64,000 nt of DNA, from assembly GCA_963762145.1 (NCBI GenBank), contig CAVXJS010000021.1, positions 448,001 to 512,000 on the forward strand, given 5' to 3'. How positions within the stretch are numbered: position 1 is the first letter of the stretch; every line of letters begins with the position of its first letter. The position numbers and the translations under genes are program-made. Source of the stretch: an uncultured Candidatus Rokubacteria bacterium. GTDB taxonomy: Bacteria > Methylomirabilota > Methylomirabilia > Rokubacteriales > CSP1-6. A model generated the notes under the pieces. It did not search any database and had not been told where the DNA came from. It saw nothing but the letters and a program-made list of their open reading frames with translations. Below, one piece after another: positions 9,219 to 16,362 of this stretch.

Positions 9219-9302
9219 GGGGTCAGGTCTTGAATTACGACGTTTCTACCGTCACGAGACGGGCTAGGCCCATGAAAATGTCGTAATTCAAGACCTGACC
9301 CC
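9219..9302. repeat. Family B element with perfect 23-bp inverted repeats between the convergent MFS and murQ genes
   Basis: ggggtcaggtcttgaattacgac (9219-9241) and gtcgtaattcaagacctgacccc (9280-9302). Confidence 0.9.
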
Positions 9303-10193
9303 ATCCAGCGTAGCGCGGAGGGAGCCGGCGGCGTGCTTCAGGCGCTTGCGGGCTTCGGGGGCGTCGACGCGGAGGCGGGCCATGGCGATGGCGACCTTGG
9401 CGCTGGCGCCGGAGGCCTCGAGGAGGCGCTCGGCCTCGCGTGGCGTCACGCGGCCGAGCTGGCGCACGAGGCCGAGGGCGCGGGCGCGCAGCTTGGCGGA
9501 GCGGGGGCGCAGGTCCACCATGCGGTTGCCGTAGACCTTGCCGAGGCGCGCGAAGGACGCGGTGGTCAGCGTGTTGAGGGCGAGCTTGGTGGCGGTGCCG
9601 GCCTTGAGGCGCGTCGAGCCGGTCAGCACCTCGGGGCCGACCGCGAGCGCGATGACCACGCGGGCCGCGGAGGCCGGCACGTCGGGGTTGCAGGTGACGA
9701 GCGCGGTCGCCGCGCCGCGCCGGCGCGCCTCCTTCAACGCGGCGCGCACGAACGGCGTCACGCCGCTGGCCGCGATGCCCACCACCATGTCGCCCGGCCG
9801 CACGCGCCTGCGGATCTGGCGCGCGCCCTCGGGGCCGTTGTCCTCCGCGCCCTCCGACGAGCGGAACACGGTGCGCTTGCCGCCCGCGATCACCGCCTGC
9901 ACGAGCGAGGGCGGCGTGTCGAAGGTGGGCGGGCACTCCGCGGCCTCGAGCACGCCCAGGCGCCCGCTGGTGCCCGCGCCCACGAAGATGAGGCGCCCAC
10001 GACGCGACAGCGCGCGCACGATCAGATCCACCGCGCGCCCGAGGGCCGGCGCCGCGCGGCCCACCGCCTGCACCGCGCGGCGGTCGGCGCGGTTCATGAG
10101 CCGCGCGATCCCCGCCGCCGACAGCCGGTCGAGCTTGCCGGTACCCGGGTTGACGCGCTCGGTCGGCAGCCGGTCGTAGCGGATGCGGCTCAC
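9288..10193 (-). CDS. murQ: N-acetylmuramic acid 6-phosphate etherase
   Basis: GAGTSGRLGVLEAAECPPTF, EGAED, GPEVLTGSTRLKAGTATK and GKVYGNRMVD. Confidence 0.95.
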   Translation of the reverse strand: MSRIRYDRLPTERVNPGTGKLDRLSAAGIARLMNRADRRAVQAVGRAAPALGRAVDLIVRALSRRGRLIFVGAGTSGRLGVLEAAECPPTFDTPPSLVQAVIAGGKRTVFRSSEGAEDNGPEGARQIRRRVRPGDMVVGIAASGVTPFVRAALKEARRRGAATALVTCNPDVPASAARVVIALAVGPEVLTGSTRLKAGTATKLALNTLTTASFARLGKVYGNRMVDLRPRSAKLRARALGLVRQLGRVTPREAERLLEASGASAKVAIAMARLRVDAPEARKRLKHAAGSLRATLDGVRS

Positions 10194-10209
10194 GCGTCCA
10201 TCCTACGTG

Positions 10210-10737
10210 CTAGTGCCCCTCGAACCCGAGCCATGCCTCGATCTGCTCCACCAGCCGATCGCAGCGCTCGTCGAGCTGCGCGGCGGTCAGGTTGGCAATG
10301 GGATGCGGCATGTCGAGAAACGGGTAGCCCGGCTTGCCCCAGCTCTCGGCCATCGCCTTCCCGGTATTGCGGAACGGGGTGGTGACGATGGCGATGGCCG
10401 GCACCCCTTGCTCCTCCATCAGGATCGCGTCGAGCACACTGCTCGAGCTGCACGACCCTCAGTCGCCGATGCCGGAGATGACCAGGTCGCACTGCGCGCG
10501 GAGCGCCTTGACCGCGCCCTCATCGACCTCGTGACTGGCCGAGCGCTTGCGATTCCGGAACGTGACCGTCATCTGGTGGCGCCGGCCCAGCCGCTCGGCC
10601 AGCTTCTCGAGGATGGGGCTGGCGTTGAACTTGGTGTTCTCCACCAGGCCGAGGCGCAGGCCCCGGGGGCTCGCGGGCCGGGGCGCCAGCTTGATCGCGC
10701 GCTCCACCGGCTTCGAGGTCGGATCGAAGAGCTTCAT
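10210..10737 (-). CDS. UGSC-motif selenoprotein (Sec at the in-frame UGA 10459-10461), 175 aa
   Basis: A single frame reads MKLFDPTS...LVISGIGD-UGA-GSCSSSSVLDAILMEEQGVPAIAIVTTPF...HPIANL. The UxxC redox motif spans the UGA, and a SECIS-like hairpin follows. The ORF track splits it into 10459.. and 10210..10437. Confidence 0.88.
10422..10458 (-). promoter_or_regulatory. Bacterial SECIS element
   Basis: mRNA after UGA: GGGUCGUG-CAGC-UCGAGCA-GUG-UGCUCGA-CGCGAUCC. It forms a 7-bp upper stem with a GU-starting apical loop 20 nt after UGA, plus an 8-bp lower stem. Confidence 0.8.
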
Positions 10738-11780
10738 GCGGTGCCTCCTTGGTTCGGTATGTCGACGCGTGTCGTGATGCTGCGGGTCCACTTGGTCCCC
10801 CATCCCGGCAGGCACGCGGACCAGCTCCCCGCCCGGCCACCCGCGAACGCGATCAGGATGTCCTCGGGCCGCTCGAAGCGGTAGCGCCAGGTCGTCTCGT
10901 CCTCCGGGGTCACCGCGCCGGGCAGGCGCGCGCCCCGCTTGTAGTCGGCCACCGAGCGGCGCGTGCGCTCCATCAGGAAGCGCTGCACGTCGAGCCGGCT
11001 CCAGCCCGCCTTCTGCAGCACCTCCTGGTGCTCGCCCGCGAACACGATCAGCGTCTCGTTGAAGCCGAGCAGGTTCGACGTGCCCACGTTGCCGAGCGCG
11101 TCCGCGAAGCAGTACAGCAGCGGCTCCGGCTCCGCGGCCAGGTGGTTGTAGACCTGGTAGAGGCTGTTCGACGCGATCAGGGTCACCGCGCTGTCCCCGC
11201 GCCGCAGGCCGCGCGAGACGTGCAGGGGCTCCCACGGATGATCCTCCTCGTGCTCCGCGAAGCAGAAGGAGTACTTGCCGGGGTTGCCGAGGGTGGCGCG
11301 GTCGAGCAGGCCGGGCTTCGTGTTCATCACGTTCATCATGATGAGGCGCACCGCGCGGCCGATCGTCGCGTTGGGCCGGTGACCCTGGCCGAAGGCGTTG
11401 TTGCCGCTGTTGATCCCGAGCCGCGAGGCGATCGGCCCGTTGACGACCAGGGCCATCGCGGAGCCGCCGGTGCTGCTGGCCGGGCCGTGATAGGCGAAGG
11501 CGGGAGCGCAGAGGCTTCGCACCGCGGCCACCACCACCGGCATGTACTCGGGCCGGCAGCCCGCCATCACCGCGTTGATCGCGGCCTTCTCCGCGCTGAC
11601 CACCGCGTTGCGGCCGGTGATCGCGCCCAGCTCCTCGGAGCCGTCGAGCCCCGCCGCGGCCAGCATTGCCGCGATGGAGGCGTCCGACGGCGGCACCACC
11701 GGCAGGCCGTCGGTCCAGCCCGCCTCGTAGTACGCCTCGATCAGCGCGGCGGGATCCGCCGCCTCGTCGATGTCGCTCAT
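10734..11780 (-). CDS. Conserved hypothetical protein, usual partner of UGSC-family proteins
   Basis: WTDGLPVVPP, AINAVMAGCRPEY, NATIGRAVRL and GNPGKY..CFAE; stop overlaps the selenoprotein start (ATGA). Confidence 0.8.
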   Translation of the reverse strand: MSDIDEAADPAALIEAYYEAGWTDGLPVVPPSDASIAAMLAAAGLDGSEELGAITGRNAVVSAEKAAINAVMAGCRPEYMPVVVAAVRSLCAPAFAYHGPASSTGGSAMALVVNGPIASRLGINSGNNAFGQGHRPNATIGRAVRLIMMNVMNTKPGLLDRATLGNPGKYSFCFAEHEEDHPWEPLHVSRGLRRGDSAVTLIASNSLYQVYNHLAAEPEPLLYCFADALGNVGTSNLLGFNETLIVFAGEHQEVLQKAGWSRLDVQRFLMERTRRSVADYKRGARLPGAVTPEDETTWRYRFERPEDILIAFAGGRAGSWSACLPGWGTKWTRSITTRVDIPNQGGTA

Positions 11781-11812: not shown

Positions 11813-11857
11813 CGCCCGCTTCTCGATCGCCCGCTTCTCGATCGCCCGCTTCTCAAT
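11813..11857. repeat. 15-bp tandem repeat x3 (CGCCCGCTTCTCGAT)
   Basis: Copies at 11813, 11828 and 11843 (last copy ...CAAT contains the IclR stop). Confidence 0.9.
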
Positions 11858-12638
11858 GATGGCCGAGCCGCTCCGAGATCTCGGCCGCCGCGCGCTTCAC
11901 CGCGTCCGCGAAGCGCCGGCGCCCGGCCTGGATCCGCGCGGACGGGCCGGTGACCGCGCACGCCGCGACCAGGCGGCCGTCGCGCCCGTAGACCGGCGCG
12001 GCCGCGCCCCCGGCGCCGATCACGAACTCGTCCACCGTCACCGCCACGCCCGCGGAGTGGATGGCGTCGAGGCGCCGGCGGAGCAGGTCGCGGCTCGTGG
12101 TGGTCCGCCGCGTGTACCGCGTGAGCGGGAGCGTGCGCACGAGGTGCTCGCGCGGCGCGGGGTCCAGGAACGCGAAGAGCCCGAAGCCGGTGGCGGTGCA
12201 GTAGAGCGGGCGCCGCTCGCCCAGCTCCGCGCTGTAGCGGATGCGCTGCGGGCTCTCCACCTTGTCCACGTAGACGAGGTCCGCGTGGCCCGGCGGCAGC
12301 ACCGCCACGAAGGTCGTCTCCCCGGTCTCGCGGGTGAGCGCCTGCAGGACCGGGTGCGCGGCCTCGACCAGGTCCGGGGCGACCGCACCCTTGTCGGCGG
12401 CCTCGAGCCAGCGCGGGCCGATCCCGTAGCGGCCGGCGTCGCCCCGCGCCGCGTAACCGCGGCTCACCAGCGTGCGCAGCAGCGGGAGCAGGCTGGTCTT
12501 GGGCGCCTCGAGCGTCACGCTCAGCTCGGTGAGGCTCGCCCCCGCGGGCCGGGTCGAGAGCGTCTCCAGGATGTCGAGCACGCGCGCCACCGCCCGGTGA
12601 CCGCCATCCAGCGAAGCCGCCGCGCCCCTTGACACCAT
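11853..12638 (-). CDS. IclR family transcriptional regulator
   Basis: RAVARVLDILE HTH, TGETTF, GERRPLYCTATG and AAPVYG...VTGPSAR; start uncertain (12638 or 12656). Confidence 0.9.
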   Translation of the reverse strand: MVSRGAAASLDGGHRAVARVLDILETLSTRPAGASLTELSVTLEAPKTSLLPLLRTLVSRGYAARGDAGRYGIGPRWLEAADKGAVAPDLVEAAHPVLQALTRETGETTFVAVLPPGHADLVYVDKVESPQRIRYSAELGERRPLYCTATGFGLFAFLDPAPREHLVRTLPLTRYTRRTTTSRDLLRRRLDAIHSAGVAVTVDEFVIGAGGAAAPVYGRDGRLVAACAVTGPSARIQAGRRRFADAVKRAAAEISERLGHH

Positions 12639-12654
12639 CGCCAAAGACCGTAGC

Positions 12655-13896
12655 ATGGCTGTTCGTGGCTACGCAATCGGTTCCGGATCCGGAACAACCG
12701 TCCCCGGGCCCCTCGGCCCGCTGGCCGGCCTGCGGGTGCTGGACTGCTCCTCGCTGATCGCGGGCCCCACCGCCGCGATGTACCTGGGCGACTACGGCGC
12801 CGACGTCGTCAAGATCGAGCACCCGCAGGGCGACGGGCTGCGCGTCTGGGGCGCGGTGAAGGACGGCGCCGGCCTCTACTTCAAGATGCTCAACCGGAAC
12901 AAGCGTGCGATCACCGCCGACCTGCACACCCCGCTCGGCGTCGAGATCGTGCGCCGGCTGGCCGCGCGCGCCGACGCGATGATCGAGAACTTCCGGCCCG
13001 GCACGCTCGAGAAGTGGGGCCTGGGCTACGACGCGCTCGCGGCCCGGAAACCCGGGGCTCGTCCTGACGCGGGTGACCGGCTTCGGCCAGACCGGGCCGG
13101 AGCGCGATCGGCCCGGCTTCGGCACCACCGCGGAGGCGGCCACCGGCTTCGTGGCCATCAACGGCGAGGCCGACGGCCCGCCGCTCCTGCCGAGCTTCGG
13201 CGCTGGCGGACTCGGCGGCCGGGCTCGCCGGCGCCTTCCTGACCCTGGCCGCGCTCCAGGGCGCGCGCAGCGCGGCGGCCGCGGCCAGGTCGTGGACCTC
13301 GCCATCTACGAGCCCCTCCTCACGCTGATGGGCCCGCAGCTGATCGAGTTCGACCAGCTCGGCCTCGTGCAGCGGCGCACCGGCAGCCGCACCCCGCTGA
13401 TCGCCCCGCGCAACACGTTCCGGACGCGCGACGGCAAGTGGATCGCGCTCTCGGGCGCGTCGCCGTCGGTGTTCGAGCGGCTCTGCCGAGTCTCGGCGTG
13501 CCGGAGCTGCCCGCCGACCCGCGCTTCCGCGACAACCAGGCGCGCCTGGCCAACGTGGAGGCGCTCGATGCCGCGCTCGGAGCCGCCATCGCGCGCTTCG
13601 ACCAGGCCGACCTGCTCGCGCGCCTCGACGCGGCCCAGGCGGTGGCTGCGCCGGTGCGGGGCGCCGACGAGGTGCTGGCCGACCCGCACTACCAGGCGCG
13701 CGGCTCCATCGCCACCGTGCCGGATGCCGAGCTGGGGCCGCTGCGGATGCAGAACGTGATCGGGCGCCTGTCGGAGACGCCGGGCCGGATCGGCCATGCG
13801 GGCCCGCGCCTGGGCGAGCACAACCGCGCGGTGCTGGTGGACGAGCTGGGATTCAGCCCGGCGGAGCTGCGGGCAGGCGGCATCGCCCTGCCCTGA
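12655..13896 (+). CDS. CaiB/BaiF class III CoA-transferase (several frameshifts)
   Basis: LAGLRVLD, GADVVKIE, NRNKRAIT, ENFRPG and GPRLGEHN across several frames. Confidence 0.9.
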
Positions 13897-14704: not shown

Positions 14705-14796
14705 AGTCGGCCTCCCGGGGCCGAACGTTAGCCCGGGCCGCGCCGTCAGTCAATGCGGCTATTTGCGGTGACGGCTTTGCTAGTATGAGCGAGGGC

Positions 14797-16362
14797 ATGG
14801 CCACGCTGACCGACCACATCACCTATGCGGACGCCCAGCGGCTCTGCTCGCCCGCCCGGCTCTGGGAGCTCTTCGACGGCGACCGGCAGCGCATGAACAT
14901 CGCGCACGAGTGCATCGACCGGCATCCGGCGGATCGGGTCGCGGTGCGCCTCGTCCACTCGCGCGAGCCGGCGGCCACGACGAGGCCTTCACCTTCGGCC
15001 GGCTCGCCGCCGCGTCGGCCCGCTTCGCCCACTACCTGCCGATCGGCGGCGTCGAGCCGGGCGACCGCGTCGGCCATCATGCTGGAGCCGTCGCTCGCCT
15101 TCTACGCCGGCGCTGTTCGGCGCGATGAAGCGCGGGGCCATCGCGGTGCCGCTCTTCACGCTCTTCGGCCCCGACGGGCTGCGCCTGCGCATCGACGACT
15201 GCGCGCCGCGGCTGCTGCTGTGTCCCCGCGCAGGCCGGCATCGCGCGACGGCCCGGGCTCGCCACCGTCGTCGCCGACGACCTGTTCCTCGCCGCGCTCG
15301 CGCAGTACCCCGACGCTACGCGCCGACACGCGCGGCCGACGATCTCGCGGTATTCCAGTACACCTCGGGCACGACCCGGGAGCTGCCGGCCGCGGTGCAG
15401 CCACAGCCACCGCTCGCATCGTCACGCTCATGGTCGCCGCGCTCTACGGCACCGGGATCCGCCCGGGCGATCGAGTTCTTCTGCCCCTCGTCGCCCGCGT
15501 GGGGTCACGGTCTCTGGCACGGCACGCTCGGGCCGCTCGCGCTGGGCGTCACCACCGGCGCCTTCGCGGGCAAGTTCGACGCCGACCGCCTGCTGCGCGC
15601 GCTCGCCGACCACGCGATCACCAATCTCTCGGCCGCCGCGACGCACTACCGCATGATGAAGAGCGCGGGCACCGCCGACCGCTACCGCTACGCGATCCGC
15701 AAGCTCTCGTTCACCGGCGAGCCCATCGACGAGGCCACCCGCGTCTTCGTGGAGGCCACCTTCGGCACGCCGGTGTGCAGCATGTACGGCACCACCGAGG
15801 TCGGCGTGATCCTCGCGTCAACTATCCGGGCGCGCCGGACTTCGCGGTGAAGCCGGGCTCGCTCGGCAAGCCGGTGCCCGGCGTGGAGGTGGAGGTGCAG
15901 CGGCCGGACGGCACGCGCTGCGGCCCCGACGAGGCGGGCGAGATCCTGGTCAAGCGCCGCGACGGCTGGTTCCCGACGAAGGACCGCGGCTGGACCGACG
16001 CGGACGGCTACTTCTTCCACGGCGGACGCGCCGACGACGTCATCATCTCGGCCGGCTGGACGATCAGCGCGGTGGAGGTCGAGGGCGCGCTGCTCAAGCA
16101 CGCCGACGTCCGCGAAGCGGCGGTGATCGGAGTGCCCGATCCCCTGCGCGGCCTCGTGGTCAAGGCCTTCATCGTGAGCCCGCGGCCCGGCGACGACGCC
16201 TTCGCGCGCGAGCTCCAGGAATGGACGCGCACCCGGCTCGCCCAGCACGAGTACCCGCGCCGGGTCGAGTTCGTGGCCGAGCTGCCCAAGACGCCCGCCG
16301 GCAAGGTGAATCGCAAGGTGCTCCGCGAGCGCGAGGCCGGCGCCTCCGTTCCCACGTCCTAG
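14797..16362 (+). CDS. AMP-binding acyl-CoA synthetase (many frameshifts)
   Basis: [29 protein letters not shown] and LPKTPAGKV; SD GAGGG before ATG 14797 (alternative start 14785). Confidence 0.85.

Follow-up and report, generated by a model that had tools for sequence, protein, structure and literature searches.

The window analysed here is a stretch of 64,000 nucleotides from a Methylomirabilota soil MAG. At the locus of interest, four genes follow one another on its minus strand in the order IclR-type regulator, partner gene, UGSC gene and MurQ-type etherase. The regulator (11853..12656), recognized by its HTH_IclR and IclR_C domains, lies directly upstream of the middle pair and possibly regulates this module. 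The partner gene (10734..11780), taken from the ORF list and the sequence, encodes a protein of 348 amino acids that has no named family. The third gene (10210..10737) is a UGSC-family selenoprotein gene of 175 codons plus a TAG stop, defined by translation with TGA read as U and by its scores for the NF041046 and PF24696 profiles. The fourth (9288..10193), which starts 16 nt past the UGSC stop, encodes a MurQ-type N-acetylmuramic acid 6-phosphate etherase (TIGR00274, 309 bits against a cut-off of 302).

On the minus strand, which a previous sequence-only reading of this DNA had left unstated, the UGSC gene starts with ATG at 10737..10735 and stops with TAG at 10212..10210, and a Shine-Dalgarno sequence, AAGGAGG (10744..10750), can be read off 6 nt 5' of the ATG. 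Because the TGA stop of the partner gene overlaps this ATG in the form ATGA, translation of the two genes is probably coupled. In the ORF listing made with translation table 11, the UGSC gene appears as two separate minus-strand ORFs of one frame, 10459..11235 and 10210..10437. The in-frame UGA (10459..10461) falls at codon 93 and, from the alignment with Cys homologues, the orthologues and paralogues, and DNA contigs, is a putative selenocysteine (Sec) codon. Translation with TGA as U gives 175 amino acids with ...ISGIGD-U-GSC-SSSSVLD..., in which U93 and C96 form a UxxC motif. The sequence-only reading had proposed both the pair of same-frame ORFs parted only by a TGA and the 175-aa read-through product; the ORF list and the read-through translation agree on the former, and a full-length UGSC match above the NF041046 cut-off upholds the latter.

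A new member of the UGSC family

The read-through product scored 141.3 bits against NF041046, "UGSC family (seleno)protein" (cut-off 125), over profile positions 2-146 of 147, and 185.9 bits against PF24696 (cut-off 25), where residues 3-170 aligned to profile positions 2-170 of 172. The database matches numbered 106, of which 71 were full-length (165-250 aa, 27-46% identity to the query) and 35 were short. A Cys at the UGA position of homologues had been named beforehand as a check on the Sec codon, and the U column is indeed Cys in 69 of the 71 full-length homologues, always as GDCGSC, and a gap in the other 2; the homologues do not stop there. The nearest database relatives are fragments that either end in ...GIGD or begin past the UGA. 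The short matches, too, include close relatives, and 15 of the 35 end exactly at ...G(I/V)GD; therefore, gene callers do split this gene, as the sequence-only reading had supposed.

In an alignment of 64 rows, G91, D92, C/U93, G94, S95 and C96 are invariant, as are the columns of N34, K36, N38, K64, D103, E108, T119, F122, H145 and P146, and the window's protein has every one of these residues. The 82 codons 3' of the TGA keep all of the family-invariant residues that fall there. Scanning species genomes with a Cys-type motif pattern gave 539 confirmed UGSC loci.

The UGSC family has long been known, and the window's gene is a new member of it, not a new kind. It belongs with NF041046 and PF24696, the family that the selenoproteome surveys of the Sargasso Sea and GOS named "UGSC-containing protein", and shares with it GD-U-GSC, all the invariant residues, the Sec/Cys dichotomy and a SECIS directly after the UGA, with no defining difference. 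What is new is the host, a Methylomirabilota soil MAG, together with the 8 copies per genome and the near-constant pairing with one partner family. PMC1976440 describes UGSC as a selenoprotein whose function is unknown, and a 2026 review (PMC13188914) lists it, with NF041046, among the functionally uncharacterised families. The family name and the unknown function given by the sequence-only reading are both correct. The review also refers to a Methylomirabilota MAG in which 63 selenoprotein genes are predicted. The GOS study (PMC2398784) places UGSC, with 255 Sec sequences in GOS, in the group of selenoprotein families that are most abundant in aquatic metagenomes. A search of the PDB sequences with the UGSC profile gave nothing significant, the best hit being a ferredoxin-like CxxC stretch (E 0.43), and the UGSC homologue P0135 had no usable match in the protein atlas with UGSC clusters excluded.

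The in-frame UGA and the Sec machinery

The sequence-only reading had tied its claim to the presence of selA, selB, selC and selD, and all of them were found in the genome, which is 88% complete and was assigned to Methylomirabilota from the names of homologues: selA (577 bits), selB (363 bits) and two selD genes (341 and 280 bits), all over their cut-offs, and a tRNA-Sec (69.3 bits, over the cut-off) that ARAGORN reports as SeC(tca). The selB, selA and tRNA-Sec genes are clustered on contig C9. One selD gene (C11:419505-420437, plus strand, locus L010) is itself a selenoprotein gene, with an in-frame TGA in CAG-U-ASKMGPGD and, after this UGA, the hairpin GUCCUGGA-GAUC-UCCAGGAC; the second (C14:136744-137655) has no in-frame stop.

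The TGA of the UGSC gene is kept in 16 of 16 orthologous loci of related genomes and in 8 of 8 paralogues, and it is present in all 150 family matches listed, from 41 genomes (the window's genome and 40 relatives). Contigs of two independent DNA studies, X1 (10100-10874) and X5 (10421-10821), bridge the TGA with a single letter differing in each. The orthologous loci and these contigs show that the TGA is not a sequencing error, a risk that had been raised from the sequence. With homologues that continue past the UGA, a full set of sel genes and a TGA confirmed in other assemblies, the Sec reading stands on every point on which its failure had been envisaged. Because the partner gene upstream ends with TGA as an ordinary stop, a global recoding of TGA is excluded. 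From these comparisons, Sec is almost certainly inserted at this UGA.

A 778-nt contig from an RNA library, which derives from a relative (~90% identical, 73 differences), spans the partner/UGSC junction and the TGA. Among the differences listed, the first is at 10483 and none falls in 10415-10482. This contig is consistent with co-transcription of the partner and UGSC genes without proving transcription, since the RNA-library contigs are uninformative on transcription, strand and level, and the gaps in the coverage of run X8 carry no meaning. A crude search of the whole genome for TGA codons lying between stretches with coding-like GC3 returned 602 noisy sites, missed the window's own site and was discarded.

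A hairpin under selection directly after the UGA

The SECIS hairpin (10421..10459, minus strand) was delineated by folding, covariation and nucleotide conservation. RNA folding gave a lower stem GGGUCGUG/CGCGAUCC (10458-10451/10429-10422) followed by a 4-nt bulge, an upper stem UCGAGCA/UGCUCGA (10446-10440/10436-10430) and an apical loop GUG (10439-10437), which starts 20 nt past the UGA and is formed from the codons AGT-GTG. Folding therefore reproduced exactly the two stems and the loop position described from the sequence alone. The AGT codon had also been called rare for such GC-rich DNA; it makes up 926 of 50,427 Ser codons (1.8%) in a crude genome-wide set of 2,270 high-GC3 ORFs (70.1% GC genome), and the loop AGT is present in 19 of 20 distinct UGSC sequences. 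The folding energy by itself was borderline: it was not significant for a 60-nt stretch (z = -1.38, 20/200 shuffles as good), and for the 48 nt from the UGA it was z = -2.72 (2/200 shuffles as good).

Covariation was evaluated over the 48 nt from the UGA in 20 distinct sequences, comprising all 8 paralogues and relatives; as they are kin, the changes represent few independent events. The 9-bp stem (columns 14-22 with 26-34) was 94.4% paired, compared with 28-45% when its 3' side was slid by 1-3 columns. Four stem pairs were changed on both sides, one of them occurring as GU (12), UA (4) and AU (3) and another as CG (16) and GC (4), and the covariation score of 0.219, against 0.053, was reached by 0 of 500 shuffles. 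The compensatory changes force coupled replacements in the protein (SSSSVL / TSWSIH / SSCSLH) and so point to selection acting on the RNA.

Nucleotide conservation is centred on the same region. Among 17 distinct orthologues (79-93% protein identity), none of the 45 bases of codons 91-105 varies, whereas each of the remaining 15-codon windows contains 11-22 variable bases out of 45. Synonymous variation was seen in 0 of 13 codons of the hairpin and in 69 of 102 codons elsewhere (Fisher 2e-6; the 17 orthologues are kin and not independent). Judged by this comparative evidence, which goes far beyond chance, the hairpin is under selection. The paralogue C19, with A-U-GTC, takes a different and non-significant fold (z = -0.08), and the hairpin is therefore not universal in the UGSC family.

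Like other bacterial SECIS elements, the hairpin begins right after the UGA within the coding region and presents a G-first apical loop with GU about 20 nt downstream. It differs from them in its very small 3-nt loop and its stem of 7-9 bp, and the lower stem of the UGSC hairpins varies among the paralogues. No Rfam family reached its gathering score anywhere in the window. A candidate Actino-ugpB sRNA at 10460-10527 (minus strand), just 5' of the UGA inside the UGSC gene, scored 24.7 bits against 42.5 (E 0.046) and was dismissed as a chance match.

Pairing of UGSC with the partner gene

Beyond what had been noticed from the sequence, the window's UGSC gene turned out to be one of 8 paralogues and to form, with the partner gene, a conserved module of two genes. 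All 8 UGSC copies of the genome score over the cut-off and contain a single TGA, and the number of UGSC matches per genome ranged from 1 to 13 across the 41 genomes. When the genome was searched by tblastn with the 348-aa partner, exactly 8 copies were found, one at each UGSC locus, with no orphans of either gene. The partner precedes UGSC as a separate gene at four of the 8 loci, and at the other four UGSC is fused to it in frame (C11b, C7, C19 and the frameshifted C14b). The C14b fusion (C14, about 370150-371656, minus strand, locus L085) has several frame changes, in the UGSC N-terminus and in the partner, and is probably a pseudogene or an assembly error. With C14b left out, the identities among UGSC paralogues and those among partner paralogues were correlated (r = 0.70, Mantel 1 of 5000), which is what duplication of the whole cassette would be expected to give.

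The pairing extends well outside this genome. The partner lies directly upstream of UGSC in 47 of 48 loci of relatives. It is also adjacent and on the same strand in 78 of 80 Cys-type loci, the best 80 of the 539, which are mostly from Actinomycetota and Burkholderiales; at these 78 loci it is separate and downstream in 73 (gap mostly -12 to +80 nt), fused in 1 and upstream in 4. This conservation of gene order makes it very likely that UGSC and the 348-aa protein are physical and functional partners.

The GOS study (PMC2398784) reported, in its section 9 and in the legend to Figure S1A, a "UGSC/Unknown_1" fusion whose unknown domain has conserved Cys. This fusion resembles the four in-frame fusions of this genome and 28 of 150 partner representatives, and going by those parts of the study we infer that Unknown_1 is the family of the present 348-aa partner. 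The same parts describe the fusion without the operon pairing of the split form, the two domain orders or the fusions to peroxiredoxin-like and FTR-B domains. Our literature search found no paper on the general UGSC-partner pairing, on both fusion orders or on the peroxiredoxin-like and FTR-B fusions.

The partner family and its fusions

The partner has over 7,900 database matches, which reduce to 4,959 representatives at 50% clustering, and it gave no Pfam match at E <= 10, no NCBIfam match and no match among PDB sequences. Its homologue P0006 matched only unnamed or "Thioredoxin family protein" clusters in the protein atlas, with no structure. Conserved features of the family are W-x-DGLP, VNGP, N137, R142 and E176. 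C75 and C173 are >=90% conserved in stand-alone forms and replaced in 2-3 of the genome's 8 copies, and no Cys is invariant in the partner alignment. Electron transfer to a disulfide of the partner therefore cannot be general.

Fusions were counted in the best 150 of the 4,959 representatives. UGSC sequence is present in the same chain in 28 of the 150, in both domain orders: 6 have a full-length UGSC at the N-terminus, 19 have C-terminal fragments of UGSC starting past the U, and 3 have the N-terminal half of UGSC at the C-terminus, ending at the U. Thus, 22 of the 28 are cut at the Sec codon. An AhpC/TSA-type (ResA-like) domain is fused to the partner in 5 of the 150 and the catalytic chain of ferredoxin-thioredoxin reductase (FTR-B) in 2, one of which has the arrangement UGSC-partner-FTR-B. 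Tandem duplications of the partner account for 7 of the 150. The triple fusion is P0356 (549 aa), in which the UGSC part is a fragment. The FTR-B-partner fusion P0276 (470 aa) also matches the NCBIfam "FtrB family double-selenoprotein", below the cut-off. These two fusions hint at a ferredoxin-linked supply of electrons.

Gene neighbourhood

Of the 16 orthologous loci, 14 have MurQ downstream of UGSC, against none of 30 loci from another paralogue group. Because it is kept there so regularly, MurQ may share a transcript with the UGSC module, although only within this paralogue group. The other cassettes of the genome sit among genes for solute-binding proteins, M20/M28 peptidases, an amidase and dehydrogenases. 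Around the 80 Cys-type loci, which are related so that the counts are not independent, the recurrent neighbours are Zn-ADH (30), IclR (27), SDR (25), Amidohydro_2 (18) and aldehyde dehydrogenase (14), with AMP-binding, SBP_bac_5 and ABC ATPase genes at 12 loci each. No universal third gene was found in the UGSC-partner neighbourhoods, whose surroundings vary beyond the pair.

A scan for promoters and terminators gave nothing inside the stretch from IclR to MurQ, the only promoter-like site found there being on the plus strand (12629-12656). Further along the plus strand, a family III CoA-transferase is split into two overlapping ORFs in different frames (12655-13759; Pfam positions 1-112 and 119-263), and an AMP-binding enzyme is present only as a partial ORF (14785-16362). 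These two are frameshifts, arising from gene decay or from assembly indels.

A PrdB/GrdB-like selenoprotein in the same genome

The genome has a second split selenoprotein gene that resembles PrdB/GrdB (C8:71665-72807, plus strand, locus L168/L167). Its product has 381 aa with U141 in TPT-U-PFC, and the gene has a 7-bp stem whose triloop begins with G and lies about 20 nt past the UGA, a Sec region that parallels that of UGSC. In the databases, 119 of the 120 relatives listed are fragments of 228-233 aa that lack the part preceding the UGA. PrdB-like matches, nearly all with one TGA, were found in 90 of 121 genomes of the phylum, a tally that includes two genomes flagged unpublished (G095 and G132), on which no other result depends.

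Discussion

Our analysis makes it highly probable that the locus holds a genuine UGSC selenoprotein gene whose product works with the 348-aa partner, slightly more likely than not as the redox subunit of a two-protein enzyme. In the mechanism that we propose, the organism's SelB and tRNA-Sec would insert selenocysteine at UGA codon 93. They would be guided by the hairpin, which begins at this very UGA and exposes a G-U-N loop 20 nt further on. The resulting 175-aa protein would bear the redox centre U93-x-x-C96 and would be made together with the 348-aa protein encoded upstream, by way of the ATGA overlap. The two proteins would form one enzyme, and UGSC would be its selenol/thiol redox subunit. 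U93 and C96 might then cycle between the selenolate/thiol and the selenenylsulfide and hand on two electrons, either to a substrate bound by the partner or to C75/C173, which are near-invariant in the partner. The main reason for reading UGSC as a dedicated redox subunit is that the partner repeatedly recruits dithiol/selenol redox modules, and on these sequence grounds the balance tilts somewhat toward such a role.

Other explanations start from the same observations. If the TGA were a real stop, a sequencing error, a pseudogene lesion or a site of read-through with something other than Sec, no 175-aa selenoprotein would be made. Nothing positive points this way, except that errors or decay do occur in this assembly, as judged from the split CoA-transferase and the degraded C14b copy. 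The possibility is very remote, given the same TGA at every orthologous locus, in every paralogue and in all the matches listed, its confirmation by two independent assemblies, the family-invariant residues kept downstream of it, the nucleotide conservation centred on the TGA and hairpin, and the complete Sec machinery. UGSC could instead be a free-standing, general thioredoxin-like oxidoreductase whose neighbour is merely co-regulated or one of many clients. A UxxC motif at a strand-helix junction would suit such a protein, a "likely Trx-like fold" was suggested for it in 2008, PMC2398784 and PMC13188914 place it among the Trx-like selenoproteins, and some databases name partner homologues "thioredoxin". 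We nevertheless consider this unlikely, because UGSC has no match to the Pfam thioredoxin clan at E <= 10, its weak Pfam matches being to Rossmann-like alpha/beta domains (Tubulin, Fe-ADH, DUF218), and because a general oxidoreductase would not be expected to pair strictly 1:1 with one gene at 8 of 8 loci without orphans, to stay adjacent to it in 78 of the best 80 Cys-type loci from other phyla, to fuse with it recurrently in both domain orders and to diverge along with it as a cassette.

A further candidate comes from D-proline reductase and glycine reductase. UGSC would then be the catalytic Sec subunit of an enzyme of that type and not an electron relay: the partner would bind and activate a small-molecule substrate, Sec93 would attack it directly, C96 would resolve the selenoether or selenenyl intermediate, and the 8 cassettes would stand for 8 substrate specificities. 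GrdB/PrdB (PF07355) likewise have a UxxC after a beta-strand and before a helix and work with a second, substrate-activating subunit, and the PrdB-like selenoprotein described above, with its similar SECIS design, occurs in the same genome as UGSC. In hhalign, UGSC aligned with a 27-row read-through alignment of PrdB/GrdB-like proteins over 84 columns that place U against U and C against C. The score of 31.6 (pairwise E 4.2e-4, probability 34%, which is no homology call) exceeded that of every one of the 22 controls, which were 20 column shuffles (at most 24.4), the reversed template (13.9) and the partner alignment (12.6). The lack of an invariant Cys in the partner, the expansion of the pair to 8 divergent copies and the placement of the cassettes amid transporters, peptidases, an amidase, dehydrogenases and amidohydrolases also fit direct catalysis. 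On the other hand, UGSC is half the size of GrdB/PrdB and has no PF07355 match at E <= 10, although this Pfam model ends just before the Sec, and hhalign against a single PrdB-like sequence gave a probability of 1%. The strand-UxxC-helix arrangement is generic, and the PrdB-like region also resembles glutaredoxin (E 0.12). The partner is unlike any Pfam family, the PrdA/GrdE proproteins included, and is thus unrelated by sequence to the second subunits of those enzymes; a reductant module accounts better for its fusions with peroxiredoxin-like and FTR-B domains. Direct catalysis by Sec93 therefore seems to us a minority possibility, and UGSC as the redox subunit alongside its partner is the reading that we prefer.

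A bolder extension is likewise a minority possibility. UGSC and the ~340-aa partner might constitute a widespread two-component, selenol/thiol-dependent reductase that has gone unrecognised, with UGSC as a minimal relative of GrdB/PrdB and the partner as a new substrate-binding catalytic subunit. Methylomirabilota would then have expanded it to about 8 (up to 13) cassettes, each specific for a substrate and serving the catabolism of small molecules, and the window's copy would be tied to the IclR regulator and the MurQ-type etherase.

For annotation, the findings mean that public protein sets systematically contain the window's gene, the 7 paralogues and the relatives of all of these in split or truncated form. 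For the biology of the family, UGSC in both its Sec and Cys forms is associated almost invariably with one partner across phyla, as a neighbour or as a fusion. The constancy of this partner, together with its alternative peroxiredoxin-like and FTR-B modules, turns an orphan selenoprotein into a testable two-protein system, and the uncharacterised neighbouring gene may give a handle on the function of the UGSC family.
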